A stretch of 64,000 bases of DNA from Candidatus Culexmicrobium cathedralense (GCA_025061115.1 JANZKC010000004.1:135171-199170), one strand, 5' to 3'. Counted from the first letter of the stretch, positions 3,404-48,416 are shown. Numbers and translations are program-made. Notes: a model not told the origin generated them from the letters alone.

Positions 3404-3424
3404 ATATAAAATTTTGAGCTAACA

Positions 3425-4204
3425 ATGATGAACATACTTGAGCAAATGGGCTTAATAGATAAGTTAGCAAAATTAGCAGAAAAAGCACGTGATTTTCATA
3501 AGAACAAAAGAAACTTTGATAAAGGAGGTATTTTATCTCAAGAAGGCACCTTGACCTTAAATAGGATAATTAGTGAAGCACACAAATATGAACTTCTAAA
3601 AGACACACCAATAATATTAGTGGACTTCATAGAACGATATAAAGCAGACTTCATACTAAAAATCTTGCAAGAAGAAATAGAAGATAAAATAAACTCAATA
3701 CACAATGAAATAGCAAAAAGCTTCCTTAAAAGTCCAGTGCAAATAGCAAAAACCATACCGCCAGATAAAAGGGGAAGAATTCTGGAAATAATTGGAAGAG
3801 ACTGGCTAATAAACGTAGTAAATGAGCAATGGGGTGAGGCCAAATACAAGCAGATAAAAGGGACAGACATAGATGCAATAGCAATAATAAAAGAGAATGA
3901 ATCATATAAAATCTACATTGCAGAAATAAAATCAAAACTTGATAAAAGAAAAGCAATTAAAGAATTCATAAATCTAAACAATAAATGCCAAAAACTAAGA
4001 AACATATATCCAAACTCTCAGATATGTGAAAAAATAATGATAATCTTCTCCAAAGTAGATGAAGACATAAAACAAACAGCAAAAACAAAATTCGGAATTG
4101 TCATATGGGACATAGAAGTATTCAAAGAGATATCTATCAAACAGGGCAAAAAAGGAGGAAAATTCTACTTAGATGCAGTAATGGCACTTAACGCAAAAGC
4201 TTGA
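3425..4204 (+). CDS. PD-(D/E)XK restriction endonuclease-like protein (Mrr-like catalytic domain)
   Basis: G..LE...TDIDAIA...YIAEIKS catalytic pattern and C-terminal GIVIWD motif. Confidence 0.7.
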   Translation: MMNILEQMGLIDKLAKLAEKARDFHKNKRNFDKGGILSQEGTLTLNRIISEAHKYELLKDTPIILVDFIERYKADFILKILQEEIEDKINSIHNEIAKSFLKSPVQIAKTIPPDKRGRILEIIGRDWLINVVNEQWGEAKYKQIKGTDIDAIAIIKENESYKIYIAEIKSKLDKRKAIKEFINLNNKCQKLRNIYPNSQICEKIMIIFSKVDEDIKQTAKTKFGIVIWDIEVFKEISIKQGKKGGKFYLDAVMALNAKA

Positions 4205-4221
4205 TATTACTGGTGATTACC

Positions 4222-4434
4222 ATGGTTGTTGCCTTCGATATCGAAACTACCGGTCTAAATCCCCTCAAAAACGTTGTAATTCTAATTGGTGTAAAGAAAG
4301 GAAAGCAACTAATTCAATGGAAAATTTGGGAGTACGGAAGTGAAGATAAAATAATTCTCGAATTTATGAAATATATTGAAAGCGTCGATCCTTATGACGC
4401 GGTTATTATAGGTTACAATGCTTTAAAATTTTAA
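4222..4434 (+). pseudogene. truncated RNase H-like (DEDD/RNase_H_2) exonuclease fragment
   Basis: VAFDIETTGL (ExoI) and GYN...F (start of ExoII), then a stop exactly where FD is expected; ExoIII absent. Confidence 0.7.
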
Positions 4435-4497
4435 ATAATTTTTTCTTATTCTATCTAAATTTAGCTGAAACTTTCATTATAACTTTTGGAGCGTCTA

Positions 4498-5391
4498 TTA
4501 TCTATATTTCATGAGAACTCTTGCATTGTAAATTGAAAGCCAGTATTTCATCTTGCTAAAGTCTTTTGCTGAAAGGATTTCATTGATTGCCCTTTCAAGT
4601 ATTGGATCTCCTAAAGATATCTTAAGTAATTTATGATATCCAAGCTTACTAATCTTGCATCTCCTAATGTTGTCTTTGGTGAGATAATATATTTCTCTTA
4701 AATATGCGGCACGTATATGACTACTTGTGTCTAAGCTATCCACTATGTTTTTTAAGTAGTTTAACATAGATGGGCTTAAGACTCCAAGTAGATGCAATTT
4801 GGTCTTGCGTCCAATTTCATGTCTAATCGATTTGACTATTTTCTTAATTTGGTTTAATTTTCCTTCTTTAATGAGAGGTACAAGTGAACCTATGGCTATA
4901 TAGTTGGAACCCATTTCTGCAAGTTTTCGCGCTGAATAAGTATAGCTTTCTACATTCCATCCGTGAGCTACGGTAATTACTTCAACTCCGAGCTTATCAG
5001 CGAGCTTTAGATAGACTTCTGCTAGATCTAAATTTCTTTGCAAAATTTTTTGCTTAGCTTCCTGAGAAAGCTGTTTATTGACTAATGGGTGATCTTTCTG
5101 GATGATATAATCTGCACCTAGCCCGACTTGAATGTTAAATATGACGTTGATAGGTATAGCTTTATTTTCATGGCTCCAAAGAGAAGAAATTAATGAATCG
5201 ACAATTAATTTACCTCGATAATTAAAGCATGTTTTAAATCCTTTACTGATCAGATGATCCATATGGCGCTTAGAGTTCATTATATTGCCTAAACTAATTA
5301 GAATTCCATCAACTTCCATGTACTTCCAATATGGCGGGTCTTGAGGGTTTAATCTCCATGTTAGGTAGATTTTCAAGCGATTTCTCCTCAC
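4498..5391 (-). CDS. divergent tRNA/DNA-guanine transglycosylase (TGT)-fold protein
   Basis: Ordered TGT-barrel motifs IVDS, GADYIIQKDHP, VAHG, IAIGSL, HLLGV, DSLDTSS; no CxCxxC zinc site. Confidence 0.75.
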   Translation of the reverse strand: MRRNRLKIYLTWRLNPQDPPYWKYMEVDGILISLGNIMNSKRHMDHLISKGFKTCFNYRGKLIVDSLISSLWSHENKAIPINVIFNIQVGLGADYIIQKDHPLVNKQLSQEAKQKILQRNLDLAEVYLKLADKLGVEVITVAHGWNVESYTYSARKLAEMGSNYIAIGSLVPLIKEGKLNQIKKIVKSIRHEIGRKTKLHLLGVLSPSMLNYLKNIVDSLDTSSHIRAAYLREIYYLTKDNIRRCKISKLGYHKLLKISLGDPILERAINEILSAKDFSKMKYWLSIYNARVLMKYR

Positions 5392-6320
5392 GCATAGAGG
5401 GATATTGCCTTTATAGCTTCTTCTGGATCTATTTTTCCATTTCTGAGATAGATTTCATCATAGATTATTGCTGTTAACCTTAGAATTTCACCGGGATTAC
5501 CATTAGTATAATCATATAATCTATCAACGACACTTTCTGGAAGGAAGCTTGCAACCTCGGGTAGATATATTCTAAGGAATTCGAGGACTTCATTTTTTGT
5601 TAAATTTCTTAAGTATATTAGCATCGCTGAAAGGCGTCTAGACAAGGCCATGTTTATCGAGACAATTTCATCCCAGCCAGCTGGTGTAGAGGCAACTAGC
5701 ATGAATAGATTATAAGAAGCGTCATCAATTAATCTTCTAAGAGCATTCATGTATGATAACCGCTTGTACTTTTTCAGCTCCAATATTGTTTCAAATTCAT
5801 CGAGCAAAATCAAAATCAACTTATCACCTTCAAGAATTAATTGAGTTAGCATCTCCAAGGATGTCCAAACATCTAAATTCCTTGTTAAACCAAGCTTTCT
5901 ACGAATCTTAGCATCAAGCTTCTCTCCCAATAACCATAAGTAATAGAAGTATTCGTAGGTTTCAGAGGAATCAGCGGGTGTAATGGCTATCTTGTCATTG
6001 ATTACTCTTAATGCTATCTCCTTATACATTCGATTTTTAAGTAACTTTCTCATCACCGCATTGTAGAGGTCTAGGAAGCTTCTACCAGGAGATGAAACGT
6101 AAATTGGAAGGACCTTTTTTGATGATGAATATACGTGCTCTAAATGCTTAAGAAAATGCGTTTTACCAAAGCCATAGCTTCCAATTATAGCTCCTGCGCC
6201 GGAAAACCTTCTTCGCTGAGATTTTTCAATATAGCTTCTTATGCGCTCAACATTTCCATCGGGATCAAACATTTTATCAAAGAAGCGAGGAATTGCAAGA
6301 CGATTAAGCATAATCACCAC
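5388..6320 (-). CDS. AAA+/P-loop ATPase
   Basis: Walker A GSYGFGKT, Walker B ILLDEFE, arginine finger ALSRRL, TNGNPG helical-lid motif. Confidence 0.85.
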   Translation of the reverse strand: MVIMLNRLAIPRFFDKMFDPDGNVERIRSYIEKSQRRRFSGAGAIIGSYGFGKTHFLKHLEHVYSSSKKVLPIYVSSPGRSFLDLYNAVMRKLLKNRMYKEIALRVINDKIAITPADSSETYEYFYYLWLLGEKLDAKIRRKLGLTRNLDVWTSLEMLTQLILEGDKLILILLDEFETILELKKYKRLSYMNALRRLIDDASYNLFMLVASTPAGWDEIVSINMALSRRLSAMLIYLRNLTKNEVLEFLRIYLPEVASFLPESVVDRLYDYTNGNPGEILRLTAIIYDEIYLRNGKIDPEEAIKAISLYA

Positions 6321-6967
6321 TTCCCACTTTTGATGAAGATATACACGTATTTGCGACCCCTAACGCTAACTGCTCTACTAGAATTTTTGTCAAAGAGAGG
6401 TGCGGGAGCTAGGATCACGTTCTCTCGATTTTCATCAACAAATTTAGCAAGAAGCTCCTCGAAAACTTTTGAGCTCAAATTAAGCTCCTTAATAATGCAC
6501 TTTCTTACCTCTACAATAGGCACGTACTTAGACCGCATATTTCTTGAAATCTTCCTGTAAGTCTCAATTATTTTGTCCATAAAAAGCGAGTAAATTTCTC
6601 TTTGCTTAGCTGGTGAAAGATAAAGTACTTCATTCAGCAGCCTAAGCGAAATATCCACAACTAACGCATTAAGACCCGTCTCTTCAGCTATACTTTTAAT
6701 AGTCGTAAATCCACCAAAGTATGCATTTGCAACTCTCTCATACTCCGGCAGCCTCAAGAGATACTTATGTAAAATGTCTCCCCGCTTCTCACTATATGCT
6801 TCCAAAAAGATCTTGCCATCCTCAGTTATGGAGTAGCTTTCTCCATTATACGTTGCAAGCTCCATTTTTAACAAGGTATGAATCGCTTCAGAAGATCCAC
6901 TATAGGCTTTACCAGCAGCAATATTGCTTAATGTCCTTATCAAGGACTTAATGGTAACTGGTCTCAA
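6314..6967 (-). CDS. multi-winged-helix DNA-binding protein (putative)
   Basis: YSITEDG wing, TIKSIAEETGL HTH, C-terminal VPIVEVRK..LNLSSKVFEELL wHTH-like segment; overlaps the ATPase gene. Confidence 0.55.
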   Translation of the reverse strand: MRPVTIKSLIRTLSNIAAGKAYSGSSEAIHTLLKMELATYNGESYSITEDGKIFLEAYSEKRGDILHKYLLRLPEYERVANAYFGGFTTIKSIAEETGLNALVVDISLRLLNEVLYLSPAKQREIYSLFMDKIIETYRKISRNMRSKYVPIVEVRKCIIKELNLSSKVFEELLAKFVDENRENVILAPAPLFDKNSSRAVSVRGRKYVYIFIKSGKW

Positions 6968-7049
6968 TGTCCTATCACCAGGATTTCCAGTACATTTGGC
7001 ATTATGCTAATATATTGCTCTAAATCTAAAAGTTTTACGGGTACTCCAA

Positions 7050-7214
7050 ATGTTTAGTGAAGAAGAGGAGATAAAAATACTAGGTACTTCAAAAATTACG
7101 AGACGTTTCCAGGTGACAATAATTAAGGAAGTTAGAGAGCTCCTCAAAATAAAAATCGGAGATATCCTCGTATTTGAAAAGCATGGAGATAAAGTGATAA
7201 TCAGAAGAGGTTGA
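7050..7214 (+). CDS. AbrB/MazE/SpoVT-family DNA-binding protein (54 aa, absent from ORF track)
   Basis: Hand translation: MFSEEEEIKILGTSKITRRFQVTIIKEVRELLKIKIGDILVFEKHGDKVIIRRG*. Confidence 0.85.
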   Translation: MFSEEEEIKILGTSKITRRFQVTIIKEVRELLKIKIGDILVFEKHGDKVIIRRG

Positions 7215-7220
7215 CCACAA

Positions 7221-9104
7221 TTATTGTGTGGACTTTTTAAAGCCGATCCAATTGAGTAAAGTTGGATTTTTAGCTTTGAAATGTAAATTAAGCATATCAA
7301 AGATGTGCTTAATGAGTAAAGTTTGATTTCTAACGCCCTTCACGGGGAACACTGTTGCCCTTATGTCGTGGTTATGATATGCCTTAGTAATTGGCGCTAC
7401 TATCACAGCTCGATCATCCATAAGCAACTTATTAACAGCTTCCTCAGCAGCCAGCAAATAGGCTTTGCTTAGATTAACGATGATTAAATCATAGTCGTCT
7501 TTAACGTAACTGAGAATTTTTTCCTCCACATTGTGCTTTGAAGCCCATTTTCTAATCCAATCACTAGACTTTCCGCTGAATGTTGCATCATACGGTATAA
7601 TGCGATCTTGCCCATGAATAACGCCATATCGAGCTGATATAAAAACTACATCAACTTTCACACCTTTGCTCCTAAGCTTATTAACACCTCTCTTAACAAC
7701 TCTAAAATTGCCAGCATACATATCTTCAGCCTTCAAAATAAATTCGCTAAGCAATTTTCTGTAAAGACCTTCGTTCTCAATATCAAATTTAGGCTTACTT
7801 AGACCATAACTTCTCAATTTTTCGTCAATTTTTCTCCACTCAACATTTTTCTGAGCCGTGCAATTGGTTATCACAAGAATGTTCTTCAGCTTTGTTGGAA
7901 TCCAAGGATTCAAGTCTAACAATTTTGTCAAATCTAGCTTTAAGTGCCTGCTTTTAGCTATTCTAAAGTTGACAAGTTTTTTCTCCTTCAAAAAATTACT
8001 AAACACCCACACATTATGGAAGCCTCTTCTCCTATTTCGATCATTACCTCTAAATATTACCACGTCAATTCCGATTTCACGACAAATTTTGCACTTGCAC
8101 TTTTTCCAAGGCCTATTAATTAATAATTCATAGTAGTATGGCAGGTAGTCTACTCCCCCATTAAGATAGACGTACTCTTCGACGAGCCGCCACAACTCCC
8201 TAAAATTCATCGCGCCTTCGTCATACCTATGAAGCGCATCGAGCAACTCCTTTTCAAGTTTACTTTCTTTCCACACACGAATCGCAGTATAGGCTTTGCC
8301 ATCCAAAGTAATGTAATTGCTAAAATGTCTAAGCCAAGCAATTCGAAGAACAGTCGAACTGTCAAATGACACCGTCTCAGCTATGCTGCCCTCCAATTCT
8401 TGAAACAGCGGAATAAGCTTAAGTCGAGCAACTCCTAGAAAATGAAGTCTCCTAAGCTTAACACCATGCAACTCTCCACGGAGCTTTTTTATAAGTTTCT
8501 TAATGAAAACCGAACTGCGCCTAGCTAAACCTCCAAGAGCAAAACTGTCAAATCCTTTACTGTAAAGTGCCTTGACAAACTTCACATAATCATTTGAATT
8601 AATGCCCTGCACTGCTGCCAACAACAAAAACTTTTCCTTGAAATTCCTCCTCCACTCATCAAGCATCTTCAAAGCATTCTCATAAGTAATACGCATCCTC
8701 CACAACTGATCCTCAGCACTCGTGCCAAGAATAGCTATATGATCAACAGTAACACCAAGATCAACACCAATTCTTGAATAAAACGTCAACATCTCAACGG
8801 GATCATATGGCGGGGTTATTTGACGGACATACTGCCAAGCACCGCAATCGCCCATAACCTCAGCATGCCCAGGTAATCTTAAAAAACTCTTAACGCCAAG
8901 CTCTTCAACACGCCTAACAATATGCTTAAGCTCCAAAACACTACGAGAGACCAGCACGCCCTCAAAGGGAATTTCGCCAAGAATGTGCCAAAGCCTAGCA
9001 CCAAACCTAAATTTATCCTCTATAAAGCCATCAGAGTGACGTTCTTCCTTAAAATCAAAACCACCATCAACGATATCATGCCAATCGGGGAGTAGATATT
9101 TCAT
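7221..9104 (-). CDS. dpdA: DpdA-type 7-deazaguanine DNA transglycosylase fused to a C-terminal YaaA/DUF6884 (DpdC-like) domain
   Basis: MKYLLPDWHDIVD..FDF N-terminus, GDCGAW, VDHI, AVQG, ALGGL, HFLG, SFDSS and PWKKCKCKIC..IFRGNDRNRRRGFHN DpdA signature; C-terminal ITNCTAQK / AEDMYAG / ISARYG / PYDATF. Confidence 0.85.
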   Translation of the reverse strand: MKYLLPDWHDIVDGGFDFKEERHSDGFIEDKFRFGARLWHILGEIPFEGVLVSRSVLELKHIVRRVEELGVKSFLRLPGHAEVMGDCGAWQYVRQITPPYDPVEMLTFYSRIGVDLGVTVDHIAILGTSAEDQLWRMRITYENALKMLDEWRRNFKEKFLLLAAVQGINSNDYVKFVKALYSKGFDSFALGGLARRSSVFIKKLIKKLRGELHGVKLRRLHFLGVARLKLIPLFQELEGSIAETVSFDSSTVLRIAWLRHFSNYITLDGKAYTAIRVWKESKLEKELLDALHRYDEGAMNFRELWRLVEEYVYLNGGVDYLPYYYELLINRPWKKCKCKICREIGIDVVIFRGNDRNRRRGFHNVWVFSNFLKEKKLVNFRIAKSRHLKLDLTKLLDLNPWIPTKLKNILVITNCTAQKNVEWRKIDEKLRSYGLSKPKFDIENEGLYRKLLSEFILKAEDMYAGNFRVVKRGVNKLRSKGVKVDVVFISARYGVIHGQDRIIPYDATFSGKSSDWIRKWASKHNVEEKILSYVKDDYDLIIVNLSKAYLLAAEEAVNKLLMDDRAVIVAPITKAYHNHDIRATVFPVKGVRNQTLLIKHIFDMLNLHFKAKNPTLLNWIGFKKSTQ

Positions 9105-9522
9105 GGATTCTTCCCTTAAAATTACACGACCTGTTATGCCTTATTTTTGTTGTGATTAAGCAAGACTATTTCATTTTTCTTTTATAATAATTTAAAAAAA
9201 TAATTTATTTAACTTAGTATCATTAATTAAAAATTTCATAAAAATGTAAAATTAATAATAGATATTGAGAAATAGTGTGATAGATATGATAACAATAATT
9301 AAAGCTATTTATATTAACAATTTATATTAAAAATCAAGTACCTTGAAAACATTAATGTTAGAACATGTTCATATTAAAGTTTTGTTGATAAGTTCTGACG
9401 CATTTTTTCTTCGGAAATTATATACGACATTCATAATGCGCCTCAAATTAAAATTTGCTCAGTTTTCTATCCAAAATTATACTAAAACTTTTAAGTTTTT
9501 GCGAGAAATTTATTTATGAACC
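9105..9522. promoter_or_regulatory. very AT-rich divergent promoter region between the two defence operons
   Basis: 418-bp ORF-free gap between head-to-head starts, with many TATA-like runs. Confidence 0.6.
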
Positions 9523-12500
9523 ATGAAACTCATCTTGAGTTTCAATGAAATATCCAGACTGGGAAAACATTCATGGAAAAATTTGACTGATGAGCATAAA
9601 AAATTAAGTGAAGATTTAATAATCAGCATAAAGGACTATCTTGAAAATAAAAAGAAAAGACATTATGCTCATGTTATTGTTGCACCCTATGGATCAGGAA
9701 AATCAACATTATTAGACTACTTGGCATATTACACTTGGAAAGAGCTTAAACGGCCTGCAATAATAGCTAATATGAACAGGATCTTAGAGTACATAAATAA
9801 TAAGTATAAAAAGGAAACTAAAGGTAAGCTACCCGAAGATAAGCTACCTGATATATTGGAGGAATTTTTCAAAGATTCATTGATTATGCTAAAAAATATA
9901 ATACTTCATGAAAACAATGTGCCGTTACCATTACGCTCAATTATTCCATTAAATGACATAATTTCAATAATTGATACTTTTCTTCAGAAAAATATAAGAG
10001 GATTACTATTAATAGATGAAGTTGAAGAGGCATTAAAGCAATTAAAAAATACAATAAATTACGTCACAAGCCCCTTTAGAGGATTATTTGATGCAATATA
10101 CAATACTACATCAAAAATTTATGTAGTGATCGCTTTTGGACCTCAAAGCGTATTAATGGAAGACATTCTAGGCTTATCCTCTGGATGGCGTAATGTAGTT
10201 AAAAGCATACCTTTATCCTCTCCTAGTATGATTTTTAATGAACTTCAAAGGCTTCTTCCCAACGAAGAAAAGAAAATCTTAAGACTTCTTTCAAATACTT
10301 TATGGTGGATAAGTAAAGGAGGACGGCCCGGATGGGTTTATAACTTTATAGAACAAAGTTTTCCAAGAAAGGTTATTCATTGTTTAAAAAATTTTAATGA
10401 AAAAAAGGAGCTAATTTACGATGATGAGTTACTAAAAGCTCTCAAGAAAGAAGTTGTTAAGGGTATACCCTGCTTTTCAGAATACGACTATATGAATATA
10501 CTTAACTTCTTGCCAAGCGATAGCTATATAGAAAGAAATCTCTTTAAAGTACTACTCGTCTTGATAGGTCCCCTGAGTGAAAATGATATTAGGAGTTTAG
10601 GAATAAATTACGACCGCTGCATTAAATTAAACCCCAAGATATTTGTCGTAGGAGATAAATTGATTCCTTATGATGCTTTCATCACGGCGGTTAGAAGAGA
10701 TCTAGAGAAAGTTGCTAAAAGTCGAAAAGCACTCGATTATAGAGATGGCAAAATTATTGAAAGAGCCATAAACCTTCTTGCCTTAGTTTTTAGTGCTTGG
10801 TCAGCCTTTGTCAATAAAATCCCCATGATATTAGATGAGAGAGATGCGTGGCAAGAACTTAAAGACATAGCAGCTGACTTAAGTCGAGAAATGTATGATA
10901 CAGAAACAGCCCGCCTAATAGAAAATTTTGAAATTCGTTGGCTTAAAATACCAAAAGAAGCCTATACTCCCGATGGTATAGTCTATGTAGCAATGCATCC
11001 AAGAATTATTGAAAATATTTACCCTCCAATATTTTCTATCCCTCTAATAGGTAAAGCGCGTCTAGATGGAATAGATGAAGTATACCCGTTTCTACGAGAT
11101 CAAGATTTAGAATATCTATCTGAATTAGCACAACAGCTTTTTGGCATTTTAGCTCACATCTTAAGCAATCAGAAAAATCAAGTTAAAGATGTTGCTGAAA
11201 AATATCTACTGGTGCCAATTATAGACGGAAGTAATTTGAATAAAATAAAAGAGTACATATTTAACAGTAAACTTAATGGAAAACATCCAATTTTAATTCC
11301 ACTAAGTCCATCAGGTGAAAAACTGAAAAAAACAATAGACCTACTTAAGAAGGAACTTAAAAGTTTTGATGAATTGCAAATAACTACAATATTAGAAAGA
11401 ATTAGTCCTCGTATGTCCATTTTTGTATTAGGCATTCTTTATGATATTGCTCATCAGGGCAAAAATGAAATATTATATACAGAGAGTGAAGAGGGATTAG
11501 CGAGAATAGAAAGAAGAATATTAGAGTCATATTCACGACAACTACTATTAATACTTTATGAAGCCATAATGGAAACAAAACGTGCCATAAGTTTGCAAGA
11601 ACTATTACCTGATTATGTTTTAGAGCTTTGTAAGAAACTTGATGAGCAGGCTCATAGTAAGTTAGGATCAAAAAGAGCAGAAGACCTTTGGTGCGTTCTT
11701 GCATCTCAAAAGACTATTGAAATATACGAAAAAATAATTGAATGTTTGAATGAAATTAATCATTTGACATCGGACCTTGTTGAGATTATTTATCCCGATG
11801 AAAGAGAGATCATTAAGGGCTTGCTAGTTAAAAAAGGCGCCTTAGATTATGTGAGGGATGCAAAAAGTTTATTTGAAAAATTATCTAAATGCTTAAGAGA
11901 TAATAACACATTTAATATGCTAAAATTAATATTAGAAGATGTTTTGAATCAAGAAAAATACATAGATTCTTTATTTAACAGAATTCAACATTCACTAAAA
12001 GAAATCTTTAAAGAAATTGAATATAAGAGTGTTTGGTACGCATTAACGTCATATTTGACTCATATGCTGGCAGATCAATGCTCAAATCCTTATATTAAAG
12101 GATTAAATGGAAAAGACTTGCAATTTGAAAAATCCAAGCTTAAAATTAAGTTAGGTAAATTGAAAGATAAACTTAATATTAATAAGCTTAAAGAACTTGC
12201 TAACTTAATGGAAAATTACCATTTGCCACAATTCATAGAAATGTTAAGAGAAAGACTTGAAAAATTTGAGAAAGTGTTAAACAAACTAAAATCTTTAATA
12301 GAAGATCTTAAACCAACAAATATCTATGAAAAATGGACTTATACTGTTGCTTTTATTAAAAAAGAAGCTGAAAGAAGTTTTATGGAGAACATAACAACTA
12401 TACTTGAAAACCTTGATAGTAAACTTTTGGGTAGCTATGCTAGTTATTTAACTCAAATTAGCGATATCTTTACGAAGACAATCCCAGATTTAAAAAGTAG

Positions 12501-12720
12501 AATCTATAATATTAGCGAAAGTGGAGAACCGGTTCTCAATGAAGATTTGAAAACAATACTCAAAAGAAATTCAAATCTTAAGAGTTTGCGTGATCAACTT
12601 CAAAATTATATAACTCAATTACAAGGCGCGCTAAATGACCTAGGCAGGTACCCCATTAAACATGACTTCAAGAAACTGCTCACTCTCCTTGATGAGATAA
12701 ACGAGATGATGATGGTATGA
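9523..12720 (+). CDS. large P-loop ATPase with helical/coiled-coil C-terminus (DpdH-like)
   Basis: Walker A APYGSGKST, Walker B LLLIDEVEE, GGRPG motif; ~1065 aa; first gene of the helicase-PLD operon. Confidence 0.7.
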   Translation: MKLILSFNEISRLGKHSWKNLTDEHKKLSEDLIISIKDYLENKKKRHYAHVIVAPYGSGKSTLLDYLAYYTWKELKRPAIIANMNRILEYINNKYKKETKGKLPEDKLPDILEEFFKDSLIMLKNIILHENNVPLPLRSIIPLNDIISIIDTFLQKNIRGLLLIDEVEEALKQLKNTINYVTSPFRGLFDAIYNTTSKIYVVIAFGPQSVLMEDILGLSSGWRNVVKSIPLSSPSMIFNELQRLLPNEEKKILRLLSNTLWWISKGGRPGWVYNFIEQSFPRKVIHCLKNFNEKKELIYDDELLKALKKEVVKGIPCFSEYDYMNILNFLPSDSYIERNLFKVLLVLIGPLSENDIRSLGINYDRCIKLNPKIFVVGDKLIPYDAFITAVRRDLEKVAKSRKALDYRDGKIIERAINLLALVFSAWSAFVNKIPMILDERDAWQELKDIAADLSREMYDTETARLIENFEIRWLKIPKEAYTPDGIVYVAMHPRIIENIYPPIFSIPLIGKARLDGIDEVYPFLRDQDLEYLSELAQQLFGILAHILSNQKNQVKDVAEKYLLVPIIDGSNLNKIKEYIFNSKLNGKHPILIPLSPSGEKLKKTIDLLKKELKSFDELQITTILERISPRMSIFVLGILYDIAHQGKNEILYTESEEGLARIERRILESYSRQLLLILYEAIMETKRAISLQELLPDYVLELCKKLDEQAHSKLGSKRAEDLWCVLASQKTIEIYEKIIECLNEINHLTSDLVEIIYPDEREIIKGLLVKKGALDYVRDAKSLFEKLSKCLRDNNTFNMLKLILEDVLNQEKYIDSLFNRIQHSLKEIFKEIEYKSVWYALTSYLTHMLADQCSNPYIKGLNGKDLQFEKSKLKIKLGKLKDKLNINKLKELANLMENYHLPQFIEMLRERLEKFEKVLNKLKSLIEDLKPTNIYEKWTYTVAFIKKEAERSFMENITTILENLDSKLLGSYASYLTQISDIFTKTIPDLKSRIYNISESGEPVLNEDLKTILKRNSNLKSLRDQLQNYITQLQGALNDLGRYPIKHDFKKLLTLLDEINEMMMV

Positions 12721-13961
12721 TAAAAGGAAAAGCAATTGATTTCCTTAAAAAAATAAGTAATGAAAGACGTGAAATTGAACAACACTTAAAAGAGTCATTA
12801 GAATATGCAGAAAAAATTAAAGAAATTATAGAAAATTATCCTGATTTTTGCAACCATATCCGAAGACCATCTAAGCCGAAAGGGTTATGTCTAGATGAAA
12901 TAAAGCAATGTAAGAATGAACTACAAGAAATTTATATTGAGCTAATTGCTACAGCTGTCTTGAATAGTTTAAATATGGATTTTATTACTAAATCATCACT
13001 TATAGGCATAGTCCAACCTATAGCTGAAGAAATCCATGAAGGAGTCTTGTCTTTTAAAAACCTAATAATGCCAAAAGAATTTGGTATAGCTTTGTCAGAA
13101 GCTATATCGAGCTACGATCCTAATGTTGTACGTTCTGTTATCAAAAGCCTTTATACCGAGGATTTAGAAAATATTATGAAAATTAATGATGTAATTTCTA
13201 AGGTGAAGAAGAATGCAATTACATTTTACGGTAAAGATCATGCGAAAGAAATAGAAGAATTGTTGCTTAACTTGTTAAAACATTATGTGAGAAAGATTTT
13301 TGATAAAGAGGTAACTGTAAAAATAATGCTCGATGAAATAAAAGAACTTCAAGAACTAATACATGAAGCATATGTTATGACAACAAATTGTAATGCTATT
13401 TCTATACCTCGAACTAATGTATTAAAGAATTATATGATTAGGGCCTTCGCAACAACAATATGTGATTATCTGAATAAACTTATTAAGACGTGTCATCAGT
13501 TACAAGAATTGCCTAAACAAAGTAAATGTACTAAATGGAAAGAAAATATTGAAAAAACATTAAAAAATATTAAGCTTCTTATTAGTGAAATTGAAGATGA
13601 AAAATATTCTAAATTATTTAAAATACAAAAAATAATAAATAAATTAGATATATCTAATAACATTAAAAATAATATCGCTTCCTTAATACAAAAAATGTTA
13701 CAAAAAAATGGGCATTTAAATGAAAAACTTTGGTTAGAACTTGATGAAAAGTTAAACAATATTTTTAGAGGAACGATAAATGACGAACAACAAATATTAC
13801 TTAATGTAATTTTTTCAATGTTAACTGATGAAAAACGTGAGATGACTATTATAGAAATAATTGAACATGCCACGAAGAAAGTGGCTAATAAGGATAAGAT
13901 GCTTAAAGCGTTGTATGAGCTTTGTGAAAAAGGCTTGGTAGAGTGTTTTGTAAGGGTGTAG
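12717..13961 (+). CDS. helical/coiled-coil protein with possible C-terminal wHTH (in the DpdI position)
   Basis: ATGA overlap with the ATPase; C-terminal MTIIEII..LKALYELCEKGLVE wHTH-like pattern. Confidence 0.55.
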   Translation: MIKGKAIDFLKKISNERREIEQHLKESLEYAEKIKEIIENYPDFCNHIRRPSKPKGLCLDEIKQCKNELQEIYIELIATAVLNSLNMDFITKSSLIGIVQPIAEEIHEGVLSFKNLIMPKEFGIALSEAISSYDPNVVRSVIKSLYTEDLENIMKINDVISKVKKNAITFYGKDHAKEIEELLLNLLKHYVRKIFDKEVTVKIMLDEIKELQELIHEAYVMTTNCNAISIPRTNVLKNYMIRAFATTICDYLNKLIKTCHQLQELPKQSKCTKWKENIEKTLKNIKLLISEIEDEKYSKLFKIQKIINKLDISNNIKNNIASLIQKMLQKNGHLNEKLWLELDEKLNNIFRGTINDEQQILLNVIFSMLTDEKREMTIIEIIEHATKKVANKDKMLKALYELCEKGLVECFVRV

Positions 13962-13965
13962 ATTC

Positions 13966-16593
13966 ATGCCTCTTCCCGTTCCCCCTAAAAATATTGTAGA
14001 AATATTTACCACTAATGGTCGTAGTGAGGATTTTGCTAAAAGATACGTTGCTAATGCTATTTTATCATTAATTGAAGAAAAAGAACAGCAACATATACAA
14101 AACCTGGATTATGATGCTTGGGTAAAACTTTCTTATAAAGATATATGCGAGAAGATTATAGAATATGTGAACCATTTTGCTCGTGCAATTAATTCAAGGG
14201 GTTTGTCGTATGATGATGTAAACCATTCTGAACTATCTGAATATATAGCATGTGTTCTTTACACATTTGCGTCAGAAGGTATTTATGAGGCGCATCATAG
14301 CCGCTACATAATAATAAGGGGTGAATATGATGTTAATGCAATTAAGGATAAATTGACGAATAGCTTTCTAGAGGTCAGAAGTAGGTTTATTGAAATCGCA
14401 CGTAACCTTGTGAAAGTAAAACAAAGATTTTGGAATACATCGATATATGAGGCAAAACCATTGATAGATAGAGTTTTTGCATACGTTGAACCAAGGTTTT
14501 TACCTATTGATGTTGTTGATATATATCAAATTTTGGATGCCCTGGCTGAGAGAGTTAAAGTATTATATGAGGTTTTTTGTGGGAAGTTACGTAAAGAAGA
14601 GAATTCTCAAACAAAGGATTTCCTTGGGGAAGTTGTAAAAAATTTTCTTCAAAAAGTTATAAAATTTAGGCTTTACGAATATCAGGTGCGAGGATTAATA
14701 CAAATTTTAAATAACGTTAAAGATTGCATCGATAAATGCGTGGAAAGAGCAGTAGTATTACAAGCACCAACAGGTTCCGGAAAAACTGAAGCTTTCGTTT
14801 TGTCGATTATTCTTGCTTCTCTTGCGTATAAAGCCGCTTTAGATTGGGATAATAAATCACCTGCTGCGCTCATTATTTACCCGCGTAGAGCTTTAGCAAC
14901 AGATCAACTGAAACGACTAATTACTTATTTATTCCATATCAATAATGTACTTAAAGATGTTGGTAATAGGAGAAAACAAAAGTATGCCAAGTTAAGGCTT
15001 TCAATTAATTATACTGAAATAAGACCTATGAGAGAATATGAGGCTTTAGCAAAAAAGGTTCAACAAGAGAAGCCTAGAGAGTGGAAAGAATATAAAATGA
15101 ATTACATAAAGGTATTGTCGAAATATAGCAATGAAGGTGAAGTTTTAGTAAAATTGCCATTTCTGTGGCTACCTGAAAGTGATGAAAATCCCTGTATTGT
15201 AGTCTCATCAGACAGTTACATATGGTATAACCAGGACATGGATTTTGTTACAGTAACTAAAGAAGATGTTTATGAAAAACCAGGCGACATTCATGTAACC
15301 CTATTTGAGACCTTGAGAAATAACTTAAGAAATAAAAGAGCACATCCTATTTTTGGTTTTCCTTATGAGTATGGTCCCTTTATAATTGTATTAGATGAAG
15401 TGCATACTTATATAGGCATAACAGGCGCAAGATACGCGTATCTTCTCGATAGATTATTAATGGTTATTAAATGCCGTACCAATCGCCATACAAGAGGTGT
15501 TTTGTTTGTATGTGTAAGTGCTACTGTACCTAATCCTGAAAACTTTATAAAAAAATTATTAGCTGTAAAAGAATTTGCCATAGTGTCTCCGAGAGAAGCA
15601 GAGACTATCCCCCTTGGGAACGAATATTTCTACGTAATAATTCCTACGACCAAATATCTTGTAAACCACTTAGCAGTTTCTATACAAGCTGCTATGGTTC
15701 TGCATTTCAATATACCTGCATTAATTGAAGAAAAAGGAAAGAAAAAGAAGAGTTTTATCTTTTCGGACAACCTTGACGTCATCGAAAGATTTCGAAGAGA
15801 CTTTGGAGATGCCATTAATAGAAAATTGCAAGATCTCAGAAATCCCCTAGATCCTGCTTTTTACGATAAGACGATTAAGGAGTTTGGTGATGGACTATGT
15901 TGGAAAGAAGCACTTGATAAACCGTGGTTACTAGAATACCTTAAGTCGTGGAAAGAGGGTGAATATTGGTGGCCGTATGCATTGGAGAAAAAAGAGGGAT
16001 TAACATTTGACAAATTATCAAAATATACGGGACCTGAAAAAGGAGATGTAAAAGAGAGTGATATTGTCGTTGCAGATTCTGCGCTGGAGTTAGGGGTGGA
16101 TTATAGGGATGTTGTCGTAATATATCAACACGGCATTCCATTAAGTATTGCTTCATTAATACAAAGAGCCGGACGTTCAGGTAGAATTGTGCGAGACAAC
16201 CCCCTTGTAAGGGTGGCTGTAGCAGTAATGTTATCTCCATACATCCCTTCACAGGCAGCTCTATTCCAACTTCTTATTAGAAGCGAATCATTAAGGAATG
16301 TTCTTGAATATGAAAGTTTGAATATACCTGTTGGCAATAAGAAATTAATAGCTCAAACTATAGTGGAAAGTATTTTAGATTATATGTCGTTAAAACCCCA
16401 ACACTTAATGAGGTTTGAAGATATCGAAAAAAGATTACTTACATTCTTAAATAAAGAGGGGCGCTCCATTGTTCAATATATTAAAGATATGTTGAGGAGG
16501 CGTGCGGTTATGCTAAAACTCGAGATAGATGATGTGATAAAAAGCACATTAGATACATTAATCGAAGAACTGAAAGATGCTTGGGAGGCTTAA
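13966..16593 (+). CDS. SF2 DEAD/DEAH-box helicase (DpdJ N-terminal part / DrmA-like)
   Basis: Q motif LYEYQ, APTGSGKTE, IYPRRALATDQ, LDEVH, SAT, ALELGVD, QRAGRSGR. Confidence 0.9.
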   Translation: MPLPVPPKNIVEIFTTNGRSEDFAKRYVANAILSLIEEKEQQHIQNLDYDAWVKLSYKDICEKIIEYVNHFARAINSRGLSYDDVNHSELSEYIACVLYTFASEGIYEAHHSRYIIIRGEYDVNAIKDKLTNSFLEVRSRFIEIARNLVKVKQRFWNTSIYEAKPLIDRVFAYVEPRFLPIDVVDIYQILDALAERVKVLYEVFCGKLRKEENSQTKDFLGEVVKNFLQKVIKFRLYEYQVRGLIQILNNVKDCIDKCVERAVVLQAPTGSGKTEAFVLSIILASLAYKAALDWDNKSPAALIIYPRRALATDQLKRLITYLFHINNVLKDVGNRRKQKYAKLRLSINYTEIRPMREYEALAKKVQQEKPREWKEYKMNYIKVLSKYSNEGEVLVKLPFLWLPESDENPCIVVSSDSYIWYNQDMDFVTVTKEDVYEKPGDIHVTLFETLRNNLRNKRAHPIFGFPYEYGPFIIVLDEVHTYIGITGARYAYLLDRLLMVIKCRTNRHTRGVLFVCVSATVPNPENFIKKLLAVKEFAIVSPREAETIPLGNEYFYVIIPTTKYLVNHLAVSIQAAMVLHFNIPALIEEKGKKKKSFIFSDNLDVIERFRRDFGDAINRKLQDLRNPLDPAFYDKTIKEFGDGLCWKEALDKPWLLEYLKSWKEGEYWWPYALEKKEGLTFDKLSKYTGPEKGDVKESDIVVADSALELGVDYRDVVVIYQHGIPLSIASLIQRAGRSGRIVRDNPLVRVAVAVMLSPYIPSQAALFQLLIRSESLRNVLEYESLNIPVGNKKLIAQTIVESILDYMSLKPQHLMRFEDIEKRLLTFLNKEGRSIVQYIKDMLRRRAVMLKLEIDDVIKSTLDTLIEELKDAWEA

Positions 16594-18911
16594 AATTGTT
16601 CAAATTAAGTCATACAAAGGTCTTATGCAGATATCTCCCTCCTACTCTATTTATGGAAACAAATCTACCTGCCGTTAAAATTAAAATGGGGAAAAAGAAC
16701 GTGAGGAGTGAAGATATTGAACTATCTTTATCAACATATTTACCAGGAAAAGTAAGCTTTAGATGCGTTCCTGGTCTCATAGTACCTATTTATAAATCTC
16801 GTAAACGCAGGAAAAATAAACTTGTAATTATCACCGATAAGGTATATGAGCTTAGAAGCCCACTGTTAAGCTCTCATGAAAAAGAAAAAATTAGAGAAGA
16901 ATTGCCATTTTCTTTTAAGGTTTATCTAAATACGTTTGGGCTTCCATGGAAAGTAGACTTTTATAGGCTTGGCGGTGTTAATGCTCAGCCTTTTCTTTGG
17001 AATAACGGCTATCACTGGATGTTGTGGTTGACGAAAGAGCATATGATGTCAATAGTTTTTGAAAAGAAAGATATTGAGAACATTCTCAAAAGATATAGAA
17101 TCAAAAACATATACTTTCTAACAGAAAGATCAACTGTTTATCCGCTATTTAATTTGACAGTACTTAAATCTCTTGAAAAAACAGCTAATACTTTGCAATC
17201 TATCGCTAAAAGGCTGGGTTTCAATTTTATTGAAAGTGACGTGAGTTATTACTCAGCTGATATATTTAAGTATCTTTACGCTTTAAATTTAGAACTTGAA
17301 GTTCGCGCTGTCAGATCCTCTCAATATAATAACTCTTGTTCTCTACCCCAGCTTAGAAAAGTTACAAGGTTTAAACGAAAAATCATAGGTACAAGGATAC
17401 TTGCTAGGGATGAAGATATGTTGTCTCCTATATTGTTAGGATTTAAAATTGAAGATACCCCTTTATTGAAGTTAACTCCCGATGTTGAAGAGTTTATAGA
17501 GTATTTTTTAAAGAAAGGCTCGCAATTAATAATTCAAGATTCTTTATCGGGTTATACGAAATATGCTATAATAATGGACTTGACTATAAATCAACTTTTA
17601 GGAGATATAGGTTGCCATAAATTGCTTACCAATTTAAATCATGTTTTTTCGTATTTTGATATTTTCTGCAACGAACCAATACTTGATATTATTGAAAATG
17701 GAGATAATCTGTTTCACTACCTTCTGTGGTTTGACGAAAAACTAAGTGAAACAAGTAAATGCCCTGCAGATCTTTTGATATTTAAAGAGATAATTGGCGA
17801 ACGTTTATCGTCTTGTAACTTTTTATCAAAGATAAAAAAGATAAATCAAAGTATTAAAGAGAAAATCGAGAACAGACTAAAGGAAATTTCAAGTCAAGTT
17901 AAAGAAGCTAAATTTAATATACTAATGTCAATTCTTAATCATACTTTTAGTCACCATTTTCTTAAGGCTATAACTTTTAGAAGTAGTGTCAACAGCAGAT
18001 ACCTCGGAGAAATTTATCATTCATACTTTACCCATCCCAATTCTGGGAAATATAAATCGTTTTATATATATGAAATATCATCAGGAGGCGTTGGAGCCCT
18101 TGAATCTGTTGTAAATACTTGGCAAACAGATAAACAGAGTTTCATTATTGATGTCTTATTGCAAGCAGGGTCGTGTATTATAGGTATGCCTGAAGATTTG
18201 GTCTATAATATGCTACTTAAGAATTATAAGCCGCCTTCATCGATTGATGAGGCGAGATGTTATGTTATACAGGGACTCAAAGACGTAGATCTTCTAATAA
18301 CGCCTGAGGAGTGTGAAGAAGCTGCGAGATTATCGTTTAGTATAACCAAGGAATTTGATATGAGAGGTTGGGACATTGCTAAAGAGGTTGCTTACTGTAG
18401 AAGGGCGCTTGAAGATAAAATTAAAAGAACTGCCTTATCTCATGAAATATGCATTAATGTTCTTAAGAACCTTAGCTCTTGTAAGAATTGCAAAGAAGTG
18501 CTTGAAGAAATCATTCAAAGGACAAGTGAAGCACAGGGTTGGAATGTTGACGTAGAAATTCTAGATGAAATAAGAGAGGCTCTTTTCAATGTAGAAAACA
18601 AATTAGTCGAAAAAATAAGGAAAGGTGATAAAAGCATGAGAAAAATTGTAAGAGAAATTGGAAGGATACTAGAGGCGGCTTTACTGAGATTTGTTCTTAC
18701 ATCATGTCCAACAGCTTGCGGTTGGTGCTATATTAACTCTAGTGGATGTAGTGAAAGCTCAGCACCATGGCTTCAAGCATTGACTCTAAATAGGAGATTG
18801 TTAAAACACTATGCTACATGGACATTAAAGAGGGTTAGAGATAAGAGAAATGAAGGTCTAACCTTAGCTTCAGTAAAAATTGGAGGAGACGTAATAAAAG
18901 TAATAGGGTAG
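16581..18911 (+). CDS. DUF1998-like protein (DpdJ C-terminal part / DrmB-like)
   Basis: HTFSHHFLKAI, YIYEISSGGVGAL and C-terminal CPTACGWC..C zinc cluster typical of DUF1998. Confidence 0.75.
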   Translation: MGGLKLFKLSHTKVLCRYLPPTLFMETNLPAVKIKMGKKNVRSEDIELSLSTYLPGKVSFRCVPGLIVPIYKSRKRRKNKLVIITDKVYELRSPLLSSHEKEKIREELPFSFKVYLNTFGLPWKVDFYRLGGVNAQPFLWNNGYHWMLWLTKEHMMSIVFEKKDIENILKRYRIKNIYFLTERSTVYPLFNLTVLKSLEKTANTLQSIAKRLGFNFIESDVSYYSADIFKYLYALNLELEVRAVRSSQYNNSCSLPQLRKVTRFKRKIIGTRILARDEDMLSPILLGFKIEDTPLLKLTPDVEEFIEYFLKKGSQLIIQDSLSGYTKYAIIMDLTINQLLGDIGCHKLLTNLNHVFSYFDIFCNEPILDIIENGDNLFHYLLWFDEKLSETSKCPADLLIFKEIIGERLSSCNFLSKIKKINQSIKEKIENRLKEISSQVKEAKFNILMSILNHTFSHHFLKAITFRSSVNSRYLGEIYHSYFTHPNSGKYKSFYIYEISSGGVGALESVVNTWQTDKQSFIIDVLLQAGSCIIGMPEDLVYNMLLKNYKPPSSIDEARCYVIQGLKDVDLLITPEECEEAARLSFSITKEFDMRGWDIAKEVAYCRRALEDKIKRTALSHEICINVLKNLSSCKNCKEVLEEIIQRTSEAQGWNVDVEILDEIREALFNVENKLVEKIRKGDKSMRKIVREIGRILEAALLRFVLTSCPTACGWCYINSSGCSESSAPWLQALTLNRRLLKHYATWTLKRVRDKRNEGLTLASVKIGGDVIKVIG

Positions 18912-18915
18912 TTGG

Positions 18916-19692
18916 ATGATCATGTTCTTCATTTACAGAACCATTGGATCAAGTAAGATAGAACAAGCGTTTCTTGACCTTTTTTACGAGGAGTTTTTAA
19001 CTGAGGAACATGATGATATCTATATAATCTCACCATGGATAACACCATTTAGTTTCTCTAAAAAAATTGTAGTATACCCATACATAGTTGCTGATAACAT
19101 TGTAGATGTATTGTTAGGGCTAGTAAAGATAGGCGTTAAAGTTAAGATTCTAACGCGTTGTATTGATGATCTGTTACCTCTTGATAAACTGTATTTAGTG
19201 GATCTTATATTACAGTCCGCAGGTGACGAAGTTAATTACAAAGTGCTACGTGAAATTTATGATTATTTGATAAATGATATTAAATGGGCAATAAATCGTA
19301 TGAAAGCGATAATTCTGCTTTCTAAAAGTGGAATAGAAATAAGGTACGATGTAGGTGAAGATCTTTATTCAAATAGACTTCACTCAAAAATGTATGTGGG
19401 AAGTAAAAAAGCTATTATTGGCTCTGCAAATCTGACACAGAGCGGTATTGTTGATAATAGAGGAAATAAAGAATTCATATTAGTAGTTGATAGAGAAGAG
19501 CCTTTATACGAGAAAATACGAGAAGCTGCCATAAAGTATTTCGAACAAGGATATAACTTTGAAAGATGTGAGAAAAGAATTATTAGAACAATAAATCGCA
19601 TACTTACTGAGAAGTTCATAAGCCTCAACGATTTTATGAAATACATGGAAAGAGTTCTAATATCTATCAGTCCAAAAACCAAATACCGTTAA
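18916..19692 (+). CDS. phospholipase D-family nuclease (DpdK/DrmC-like)
   Basis: IYIISPWI, single HxK motif LHSKMYV..AIIGSANLT..G..N.E. Confidence 0.85.
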   Translation: MIMFFIYRTIGSSKIEQAFLDLFYEEFLTEEHDDIYIISPWITPFSFSKKIVVYPYIVADNIVDVLLGLVKIGVKVKILTRCIDDLLPLDKLYLVDLILQSAGDEVNYKVLREIYDYLINDIKWAINRMKAIILLSKSGIEIRYDVGEDLYSNRLHSKMYVGSKKAIIGSANLTQSGIVDNRGNKEFILVVDREEPLYEKIREAAIKYFEQGYNFERCEKRIIRTINRILTEKFISLNDFMKYMERVLISISPKTKYR

Positions 19693-19881
19693 TATAGCTA
19701 ATATAGCTTATACAAAGCACAGCTCATAGTTAACCTGCGTACACTTATGCAGCTAAGACGATGTTTGCTAATTAATCAGACTTAAACATAAACTACTTCA
19801 CTATTTTTGAATACAAAAATTGTTTATTTTTAGCTACATCTTAAAAATACAAAATGCTCATGAGGAAAATGTGGTGGCAGC

Positions 19882-20172
19882 ATGGTAGACTTAATCATAC
19901 CCCTATTCTATAAGCCGGCCTGGGAGATTGAGCTGGAAGGAAGAGAGCTAGACGTTAGATTCGCAGATGAGCTGAGAAACCTCGGCGACGAATTGAGAGA
20001 TAGACTATACCGAGCAGCAGAACTACATGAAAAACTTCTAGAAAACGGATGGAAAGCAATAGGAGGACAATACGAAATAACCTACCACAAAGACCTAACA
20101 ATAGAAGAAGCACAACAAGAAATCCAAAAACTACAAATAGAAAAATACCTAAGCAGCCTCACCAAAACCTAA
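19882..20172 (+). CDS. small hypothetical protein
   Basis: 96-aa ORF with plausible composition and upstream GGTGG RBS-like sequence. Confidence 0.55.
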   Translation: MVDLIIPLFYKPAWEIELEGRELDVRFADELRNLGDELRDRLYRAAELHEKLLENGWKAIGGQYEITYHKDLTIEEAQQEIQKLQIEKYLSSLTKT

Positions 20173-20387
20173 CAAACAACAAGAAACAAAATCAGCGATC
20201 ACCGTCACTAACAGCTTCGAAGCCAACGCAGAAGGCAAATCAACTTCCCACCCCGAATTCTAAAAGCACTCCCTCAAACCCTCGCAATGAAGATTAAAAC
20301 CCTAACTCTTAAACTAGATAGGCAATTCACATGAATTTTGGGCATTTTTATATATTTGTGGGCATATTTTAAGGGTGAGGGACAAAT

Positions 20388-48413: not shown

Positions 48414-48416
48414 AAT

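Follow-up and report, generated by a model that had tools for sequence, protein, structure and literature searches.

A stretch of 64,000 nucleotides from Candidatus Culexmicrobium cathedralense (GCA_025061115.1, JANZKC010000004.1:135171–199170), referred to here as the window, carries at positions 4498–19692 an island of nine genes which, with a probability of about 0.62, may be read as a mobile Dpd-type restriction–modification system of Thermoproteota and Bathyarchaeia that lacks DpdB and has two members of the tRNA-guanine transglycosylase (TGT) family. Its predicted writing arm consists of a DpdA transglycosylase fused to a DpdC-like domain, together with a trio made up of a winged helix-turn-helix (wHTH) protein, a small AAA+ ATPase and a second, zinc-less TGT (TGT2). 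The predicted restriction arm consists of a DpdJ-like helicase encoded in two halves and a phospholipase D (PLD)-family nuclease, preceded by a large ATPase and a helical protein.

All nine open reading frames (ORFs) are intact and are arranged in two divergent operons within a low-GC block that spans approximately 2–21 kb; GC is 0.29–0.37 in 2-kb windows across 2001–20000, compared with 0.46–0.51 in a comparison region at 38001–56000. Gene junctions are mostly tight, with overlaps of 4–13 nt or a spacing of 4 nt, the exception being a gap of 253 nt after the DpdA gene. The divergent intergenic region, placed at 9105–9522 from the ORF coordinates, presumably contains the promoters. A first-pass annotation of the window had described nine genes in two head-to-head, coupled operons of an AT-rich block as a reduced and rewired Dpd system. 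The ORF calls and GC windows confirm the layout, and the partial Dpd matches found in PADLOC and NCBIfam, which leave out DpdB, DpdD, DpdE, DpdF and DpdG, are in keeping with the interpretation.

A DpdA–DpdC-like fusion and its linked trio

The gene at 7221–9104 (minus strand) encodes a 627-aa protein with a transglycosylase at residues 1 to ~390 and a DUF6884 ‘cantaloupe’ domain at residues ~405–627. The protein scores 269.9 bits against NCBIfam DpdA (NF041059, cut-off 200) and 31.6 bits against the arcTGT model, and matches PADLOC DpdA at 7.1e-75. In an alignment of 36 sequences the transglycosylase residues D86, D121-H122, G191-G192 and D248 are invariant and correspond to active-site residues in DpdA from S. 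Montevideo (D95, D130, G206-G207 and D256); the zinc ligands C336, C338, C341 and H363 are likewise invariant. The features of the DNA-type TGT of canonical Dpd, a catalytic Asp pair, a base-binding Asp and a zinc site, are all present.

The C-terminal third of the fusion matches PADLOC DpdC (5.1e-10 on residues 407–528) and Pfam DUF6884 (26.5 bits, just below the gathering threshold (GA) of 30), and its motifs C415..K419 (CxxxK) and S490..G494 (SAxxG) are invariant in the same alignment. The Pfam curators describe DUF6884 as a distant YaaA relative with the motifs CxxxK and LSAxxG; the ‘YaaA-like’ label first given to this domain was right at the superfamily level. In the accessible part of the GATOR-GC survey, DpdC of bacterial dpd islands falls under DUF6884 in Pfam scans. 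A DUF6884-type DpdC is therefore present as a domain fused to DpdA, which would convert dPreQ0 to dADG.

A genome scan was carried out with the DpdA alignment as query on one genome per species (517 relatives), and the best 80 loci (L022–L101) were examined. DpdA–DUF6884 fusions are present in 40 of these 80 loci, bacteria included. The archaeal domain order is reversed in cyanobacteria, whose fusions have DUF6884 at the N-terminus. Stand-alone DUF6884 proteins of 216–272 aa, with no DpdA gene match, occur in 18 of 61 related genomes, 17 of which belong to one family (relatives G019–G059; loci L013–L021 and others). A tenth ORF (7007–7300, 97 aa) overlaps the 3′ end of the DpdA gene; it belongs to no family, is kept only in a 99% identical metagenome contig (L118) and is probably not a gene.

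TGT2, a TGT-barrel paralog of 297 aa, is encoded at 4498–5391 (minus strand). It scores 30.8 bits against Pfam TGT (GA 26.3), 79.2 bits against NCBIfam DpdA (under the cut-off of 200) and 41.7 bits against arcTGT. Residues D65, D100, G144-W145, G168-S169 and D221 are invariant in 8/8 relatives, and D65, D100 and D221 align with DpdA D86, D121 and D248, the acid/base, base-binding and nucleophile aspartates; the zinc motif CxCxxC..H is not present in the alignment of TGT2 with its relatives. A tree of 44 rows places 22 DpdA domains together in a single clan (100/100) and the 13 zinc-less TGT2 proteins in a separate one (100/99). TGT2 is therefore not a recent copy of the neighbouring gene. Zinc-bearing TGT2-like proteins of other archaea and bacteria make up three further lineages on the TGT2 side of the tree; the single arcTGT row also falls on this side, on a long branch and with an unsure placement. 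For the four genomes shared by the DpdA and TGT2 clans, the inner branching of the two matches.

Of the 80 loci, 22 have a further TGT-family ORF close to DpdA, bacteria again being among them. Those of Dictyobacter, Paenibacillus, Calidithermus, Roseiflexus and cyanobacteria keep the zinc motif. Neither the fused DpdA nor the second TGT is therefore peculiar to archaea, which qualifies the candidate new archaeal system proposed in the first-pass annotation. DpdA subfamilies named in the accessible literature are bDpdA and DpdA1–4. Viral contigs yielded no relative of TGT2. Homolog searches based on a word index had little power for fast-evolving parts, returning two non-self matches each for TGT2 and the large 1065-aa ATPase. 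A complex prediction combining DpdA residues 1–400 (36-row alignment) with TGT2 (8 rows) gave run scores of 0.00, 0.61 and 0.00.

The remaining two members of the trio are encoded between TGT2 and DpdA on the same strand. The product of 5388–6320 (minus strand, 310 aa) is a small AAA+ ATPase of ATPase_2 or BrxC_BrxD-like type (Pfam PF01637, 44.3 bits, GA 33.2; PF10923, 37.5 bits, GA 22.2) with intact Walker A (GSYGFGKT) and Walker B (LILLDEFE) motifs, and is a candidate stand-in for DpdB. The product of 6314–6967 (minus strand, 217 aa) is a predicted multi-winged-helix DNA-binding protein. Its only Pfam match is HTH_45, at 18.6 bits; an AlphaFold2 (AF2) model (pLDDT 90.3, pTM 0.82) consists of helical/winged-helix units, and residues 118–217 match the winged-helix domains of ORC, Cdc6 and Cdt1 (Z 7.5–8.4). 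Foldseek with the whole model returned nothing at E≤1e-3, and a ParB-like fold was not among the structure matches, which is weak as an exclusion of one. These domain calls agree with those first made for the trio, albeit through a weak profile match in the case of the wHTH protein.

The helicase–nuclease arm and the large ATPase

On the plus strand, 13966–16593 encodes an 875-aa YprA-family helicase with a DEVH motif, and 16581–18911 encodes a 776-aa protein. In PADLOC the helicase is nearest to DpdJ (1.4e-58), followed by DrmA (1.6e-23) and DruE (1.8e-17); its closest solved structure is YprA/MrfA (6znp, 5.9e-13). The two proteins are collinear on one fused cyanobacterial homolog of 1647 aa, the helicase lying on residues ~90–730 and the N-terminus of the 776-aa protein on residues 855–914. 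The 776-aa protein matches DpdJ weakly (3.2e-5 in PADLOC, 5.5e-4 in NCBIfam), and a PDB sequence search with it gave nothing at E≤1. Its C-terminal cysteine cluster is kept, with C709, C713 and C716 invariant across six sequences, and the Methanosarcina ortholog aligned with it matches MZB (PF09369, DUF1998) at 26.8 bits (GA 24.2). Judged from sequence, the 776-aa protein is the continuation of the helicase, the two being the N- and C-terminal halves of a split DpdJ-like gene in which the 4-Cys DUF1998 module, DrmB-like in character, has been kept. The DUF1998-like label first attached to it is supported indirectly, through the fused homolog, the cysteines and the match of the ortholog. According to the accessible text of the Bell et al. 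2025 preprint, canonical DpdJ has lost the 4-Cys cluster.

The operon ends with a 258-aa PLD-family nuclease (18916–19692, plus strand; Pfam PLDc_2, 44.3 bits, GA 27), which in PADLOC matches DpdK at 6e-9 and DrmC at 2.5e-6 and contains the motif H156-x-K158 ... G169-S-A-N172. The motifs of the DEVH helicase and PLD protein named in the first-pass annotation can thus be read in the sequence, and the helicase–DUF1998–PLD run is DISARM-like, as had been proposed, in that it is split. A further split DpdJ-like pair (840 + 689 aa, with MZB on the latter) is present in Methanosarcina sp. Mfa9 (L044, 11732–20313), where a 1062-aa protein with Cas4-like and helicase matches follows the pair and a DpdA fusion adjoins.

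The first gene of the operon (9523–12720, plus strand) encodes a 1065-aa ORC/Cdc6-like AAA+ ATPase with a long helical tail, a positional analogue of DpdH and BrxC. It belongs to no named family and gave no match in PADLOC or NCBIfam. An exhaustive search found 79 related representatives, 33 of them at E≤1e-30, with clear homologs in Caldivirga (9e-18) and in the complete genome G166 (8.6e-46); across 40 sequences of the family Walker A (G57-K60) and Walker B (D165-E166) are invariant or nearly so. The top Foldseek matches of its AF2 model (pLDDT 81.1) are archaeal ORC2/Cdc6 (E 8e-5 to 1.5e-4, TMt 0.36–0.44), then clamp loaders and RuvB, while the tail matches helical bundles only. ORC/Cdc6-like AAA+ is the fold class reported for DpdH in the accessible part of the GATOR-GC survey and for BrxC in that of a 2026 BREX paper; the DpdH label for the island protein is based on this fold class and on position only. 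A PADLOC ‘mad8’ match was considered for the family and set aside; it occurs in 21 of 40 relatives (best 1.3e-7), is absent for the 1065-aa protein itself and looks like P-loop similarity only.

The second gene (12717–13961, plus strand) encodes an orphan helical protein of 414 aa at the DpdI position, and position is the only basis for that label. No Pfam, PADLOC or NCBIfam family was found for it, and its Atlas model has a pLDDT of 0.45; the earlier ‘coiled-coil’ description could not be verified, the long helices lying instead in the tail of the 1065-aa protein. It has no detectable homology to the 425–441-aa proteins at the same position in three other loci (L023, L024 and L116), a hidden Markov model of which gave E 0.59. 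The gene following the large ATPase is thus kept across relatives in size and place, not in sequence. As regards the earlier designation of the operon as an H-I-J-K arm, DpdJ and DpdK are the best families for the helicase and PLD, at scores far below their equivalog cut-offs, whereas DpdH and DpdI have no PADLOC or NCBIfam matches and the corresponding genes are facultative in relatives.

Distribution and comparison with known systems

Among the 80 loci examined, those closest to the DpdA of the window (43–49% identity) belong to Bathyarchaeia, Caldivirga, Vulcanisaeta, Thermoproteus and Pyrodictiaceae; wherever the locus is informative, the trio, both helicase halves and the PLD gene are present. 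The complete genome G166 has all nine genes, running from the large ATPase through a 425-aa ORF, helicase, second half and PLD to the DpdA fusion on the other strand, and then to wHTH, ATPase and TGT2. Its DpdA fusion shows full identity to a protein recorded by NCBI under Vulcanisaeta distributa, and the genome also has a QueC-type gene. The restriction arm of G166 has a GC of 0.31–0.39.

A metagenome scan through TGT2 gave 49 loci, of which 13 are too short to judge; absences fall mostly at contig ends. Partners found were the small ATPase (45 loci), wHTH protein (41), DpdA fusion (33), helicase (32), second helicase half (26), PLD (24) and large ATPase (14). The judgeable loci represent six gene orders (11, 9, 8, 5, 2 and 1 loci). 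Many loci are near-copies, the TGT2 proteins forming 13 clusters at 90% identity and seven at 50%; the 13 clusters show that this is not one clone counted repeatedly. One of the short loci, on contig L118, has a writing arm 99% identical to that of the window and may come from the same population as the host. Linkage persists through rearranged gene orders, which typically marks a single functional unit, and the modification and restriction arms belong together. The first-pass annotation had suggested looking for the same neighbourhood elsewhere, and the two operons do co-occur in other genomes.

Carriers are rare among the relatives and in the phylum. The DpdA fusion is found in one of 61 (G000, the host itself), and a true TGT2 in two of 401 genomes sampled from the phylum, the host (439 bits) and G166 (401 bits); the other 11 matches to the TGT2 profile score 42–47 bits, ten in ORFs of ~500 aa taken as arcTGT and one in a 297-aa ORF. 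This rarity, together with the low GC of the island in the host and G166, fits horizontal transfer of a defence island. The stretch itself is chromosomal archaeal DNA, with an unsplit rpoB followed by rpoA′ and rpoA″ at 40818–47989 and a single tRNA-Asp at 24826–24903; the unsplit rpoB and the named relatives of the island genes point to Thermoproteota as the likely placement of the host, a hyperthermophile-type archaeon.

Several observations concern the surroundings of the island. Two ORFs (302 and 259 aa) at 2495–4204, in the low-GC block just outside the nine genes, have one faint family match only at E≤0.01 and could be part of the island. At either edge of the block (169–1009 and 20388–21055) are PIN-domain (VapC-like) genes preceded by small partner ORFs; that at 20633–21055 matches PIN at 36.8 bits, and the product of 169–717 is PIN-like by reading alone. 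A 23-nt direct repeat, 91% identical, flanks the block at 781–803 and 21112–21134, 20.3 kb apart. It could mark the ends of the island or be due to chance, and was not called as an attachment site, being too short. Other low-GC stretches of the window lie at 24000–28000 and 56000–64000 (GC 0.34–0.38), and a V4R-domain protein is encoded at 55969–56907.

Among the ten ORFs of the island no PADLOC or NCBIfam match to DpdB was found, and there is no DGQHR/DndB-like gene (TIGR03187) in the whole 1.98-Mb host genome, which is rated 99.99% complete with 7.65% contamination; by contrast, the cyanobacterial DpdA locus L090 has a DGQHR gene at 113–123 bits (best 122.8). Nothing above noise was detected in the island for DpdD, DpdE, DpdF or DpdG with the same two collections, the only DpdF line being a 27.8-bit helicase-C match of the DpdJ-like protein. 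No methyltransferase family is present in the nine ORFs or the flanking ORFs at 1340–4204 and 19882–24635, and no preQ0 synthesis genes are found among the island ORFs. The absences listed in the first-pass annotation are therefore upheld.

With the canonical Dpd system (dpdA–K, Salmonella Montevideo type) the island shares the active-site and zinc residues of DpdA, a DpdC-family domain, a DpdJ-like YprA helicase followed by a small PLD protein, an ORC-type ATPase upstream of the helicase and a low-GC setting. It differs in lacking DpdB, DpdD, DpdE, DpdF, DpdG and adjacent preQ0 genes, in the fusion of DpdC to DpdA, in the addition of the trio, and in a DpdJ which is split and keeps its 4-Cys cluster. 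It also differs in its archaeal hosts: the GATOR-GC survey, which required dpdAB, covers eight bacterial phyla, and the word ‘archaea’ is absent from its accessible text. With DISARM the island shares the core triad of drmA–drmB–drmC type, that is, separate helicase and DUF1998 genes and then PLD; it lacks the DrmMI/MII methyltransferase, DrmD and DrmE, its helicase is much nearer to DpdJ than to DrmA, and its self-marking would presumably be base exchange rather than methylation. The eukaryotic QTRT1/QTRT2 heterodimer resembles the island in having two TGT paralogs for one task, but its QTRT2 subunit is non-catalytic. TGT2 keeps the catalytic aspartates, the predicted substrate is DNA, and the pairing of DpdA with TGT2 is hypothetical.

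Two recently described groups are also close. BRIGADE, a Dpd-like/ARMADA-like hybrid described by Bell et al., is likewise archaeal and Dpd-related, with a YprA helicase, PLD and a BrxC-like ATPase; in the accessible part of that preprint it is reported from halophilic archaea only, with a cluster for deazaguanine biosynthesis and usually a pair of ARMADA-like helicases. The island has a single split helicase nearest to DpdJ/DrmA, a clade judged by PADLOC ranks only, is hosted by Thermoproteota and Bathyarchaeia, and has no QueC, QueD, QueE or FolE in the island or host genome. BRC (BREX-related capture, TGT + GNAT), from the accessible part of the 2026 BREX paper, similarly has a TGT without DpdB or DpdC, along with ATPases of ORC/Cdc6 and STAND type and a DNA-binding protein in several parts, and its authors propose an NTPase as the DpdB substitute. 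Its defining components, HerA/FtsK and PglZ, are both missing from the Pfam matches of the island ORFs at E≤0.01, and the island, unlike BRC, has a DpdC-like domain and a YprA helicase. In the literature searched, no two-TGT or archaeal cellular Dpd system of this gene set was found; such loci may be listed in the supplements to the Bell et al. preprint and the GATOR-GC paper, which lay outside the search. The accessible text of the preprint acknowledges ‘uncharacterized Dpd-like classes’.

Proposed mechanism and alternative readings

By analogy with bacterial Dpd, the DpdA domain would exchange guanine in double-stranded DNA for a 7-deazaguanine, presumably preQ0, and the fused DUF6884 domain would then turn the inserted nitrile into an amide (dADG). 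According to the accessible part of Gedara et al. 2023, DpdA needs the ATPase DpdB, and DpdC acts afterwards; these authors liken DpdA/DpdB to QTRT1/QTRT2. Since bacterial DpdA depends on ATP hydrolysis by DpdB and no DpdB is found here, we infer that the always-linked trio is its replacement. The three-winged-helix protein would bind DNA, the small ORC-like ATPase would supply ATP-driven opening of DNA or loading, and TGT2 would serve as a second catalytic or partner subunit. The split YprA-family helicase and the PLD nuclease would attack DNA without the mark, while roles as accessory sensors or scaffolds may fall to the variable helical protein and to the large ATPase of ORC/Cdc6-like fold, as is thought for DpdH-I and BrxC.

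A number of observations weigh against this interpretation. The helicase and PLD protein score far below the NCBIfam cut-offs for DpdJ (190.3 bits, cut-off 800) and DpdK (31.1 bits, cut-off 100). None of the 40 members of the large ATPase family matches DpdH, DpdI or BrxC in PADLOC, and the 414-aa protein has no detectable sequence link to DpdI; neither gene occurs in eight of the loci or in Thermoproteus L025, in all of which the helicase gene adjoins that for DpdA, and the pair is thus an optional part of the system. At least one bacterial locus with a second TGT paralog also has a DpdB-like gene, and TGT2 by itself is therefore not a replacement for DpdB. In six loci the trio lies beside the restriction arm and the stretch covered contains no DpdA fusion; each of these sequences stops inside the arm or shortly after it. 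In one of the six the missing part probably holds the fusion, but TGT2 could also serve alone in such loci. In the Bathyarchaeia locus L022 (4502–5930), all that is left of the restriction arm, sandwiched by the genes for the DpdA fusion and the wHTH protein, is the PLD gene and a 231-aa piece of the second half of the helicase; here the cutting arm appears to have decayed and the writing arm to have been retained. Finally, the host genome lacks QueC (best match 31 bits against a cut-off of 150, the matches being ThiI and LarE), QueD, FolE, FolE2 and the YhhQ importer, and a Pyrodictiaceae carrier also lacks QueC.

The last of these points bears on the source of the base. The first-pass annotation had proposed that the system may draw on the host archaeosine pathway. 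For this host the proposal fails, as arcTGT is present (447 bits) but none of the preQ0 genes just named; ArcS is not above cut-off in the genome. A QueC-like gene is also absent from 10 of 11 relatives of the same order, in which arcTGT-type genes are kept (G001–G011), and the absence is therefore a trait of the lineage. As the known route is missing, the base would have to be salvaged in this host; as arcTGT is kept and needs preQ0, some supply probably exists. A preQ0 salvage path outside known routes, or another arcTGT substrate, is thus implied for the host order. Much the same evidence could favour a different chemistry, in which the two TGTs insert a base other than preQ0 (a salvaged deazapurine, or one base per TGT) and DUF6884 does something other than nitrile hydration. 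The separateness of the TGT2 clan from DpdA would suit such a scheme, as would viral DpdA relatives, which in the accessible literature insert several different deazaguanines. We consider it unlikely, given the probable supply of preQ0 for arcTGT, the presence in four of five other carriers of QueC (above cut-off in three) or a near-cut-off QueC-like gene (149.5 bits), and the insertion of preQ0 by all DpdA enzymes assayed so far in the literature accessible. The same gap in preQ0 synthesis and known import raises the question of whether the island is a silent passenger in this host, with intact genes, no substrate and no function; the holders listed in a search of sequencing runs are four DNA metagenomes and no RNA set. 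A silent island is very improbable: all nine frames are open, loss or toxicity would be the expected outcome for a restriction arm that has no mark, and a 99% identical writing arm is found on L118, although that contig may derive from the same population.

The two arms may instead be assigned other roles or no common role. One or both TGTs could be weapons, excising or exchanging bases of incoming DNA or acting against viral DNA that carries deazaguanine, and so supply damaged DNA to the helicase–nuclease arm, with no self mark involved; deazaguanines are present in crenarchaeal virus DNA according to the accessible literature, glycosylases acting on deazaguanine-modified phage DNA are known defence enzymes (albeit of other folds), and TGT2 has kept its catalytic aspartates while losing the zinc site. 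Such a role is rather improbable, since by its score the DpdA part counts as an equivalog of the marker enzyme of bacteria, its fused DpdC-type finishing domain is sensible only on DNA that is kept, and the literature searched offers no precedent for a TGT-fold restriction enzyme. The least probable of the explanations weighed is that a modification-only DpdA module merely lies next to an unrelated, methylase-less DISARM-like remnant. Defence genes do cluster, toxin–antitoxin-like PIN genes flank the block, the arm of L022 is degraded, and dpd islands without restriction operons exist in bacteria (GATOR-GC survey, accessible part). However, the two gene sets remain linked across five or more gene orders, 13 clusters and five named genera or groups, and no other modification gene accompanies the helicase arm in the island or its flanks.

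The preferred reading therefore remains a DpdB-less, two-TGT Dpd-type system, in which the identities at family level are firm and the mechanism is drawn by analogy, and a wider proposal can be built on it, which is put forward tentatively, the odds being rather against it. Hyperthermophilic archaea may write 7-deazaguanine into their own chromosomes with machinery that differs from the bacterial kind, in which a DpdA::DpdC fusion works with a zinc-less, catalytically intact TGT2 and loading onto DNA falls to the triple winged-helix protein and the ORC-like AAA+ ATPase. Paralogs of TGT2 type, as found in 22 of the 80 DpdA loci, might then be a general but unrecognised component of deazaguanine DNA modification, either a subunit or a second writer, perhaps for a second base or sequence context. 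Deazaguanine in cellular DNA has so far been shown in bacteria only, and the sole reconstituted system is DpdB-dependent; the recurrent second TGT paralog lies outside the current DpdA/B/C model. The presence of arcTGT in a host without any known preQ0 route points to a preQ0 salvage path outside those known. The system is compact, with nine genes, and seven in some relatives. If the reading is true, the deazaguanine mark extends to archaeal chromosomes, and the DpdB-free version would add, for high temperatures, another means of opening the duplex so that bases can be exchanged.

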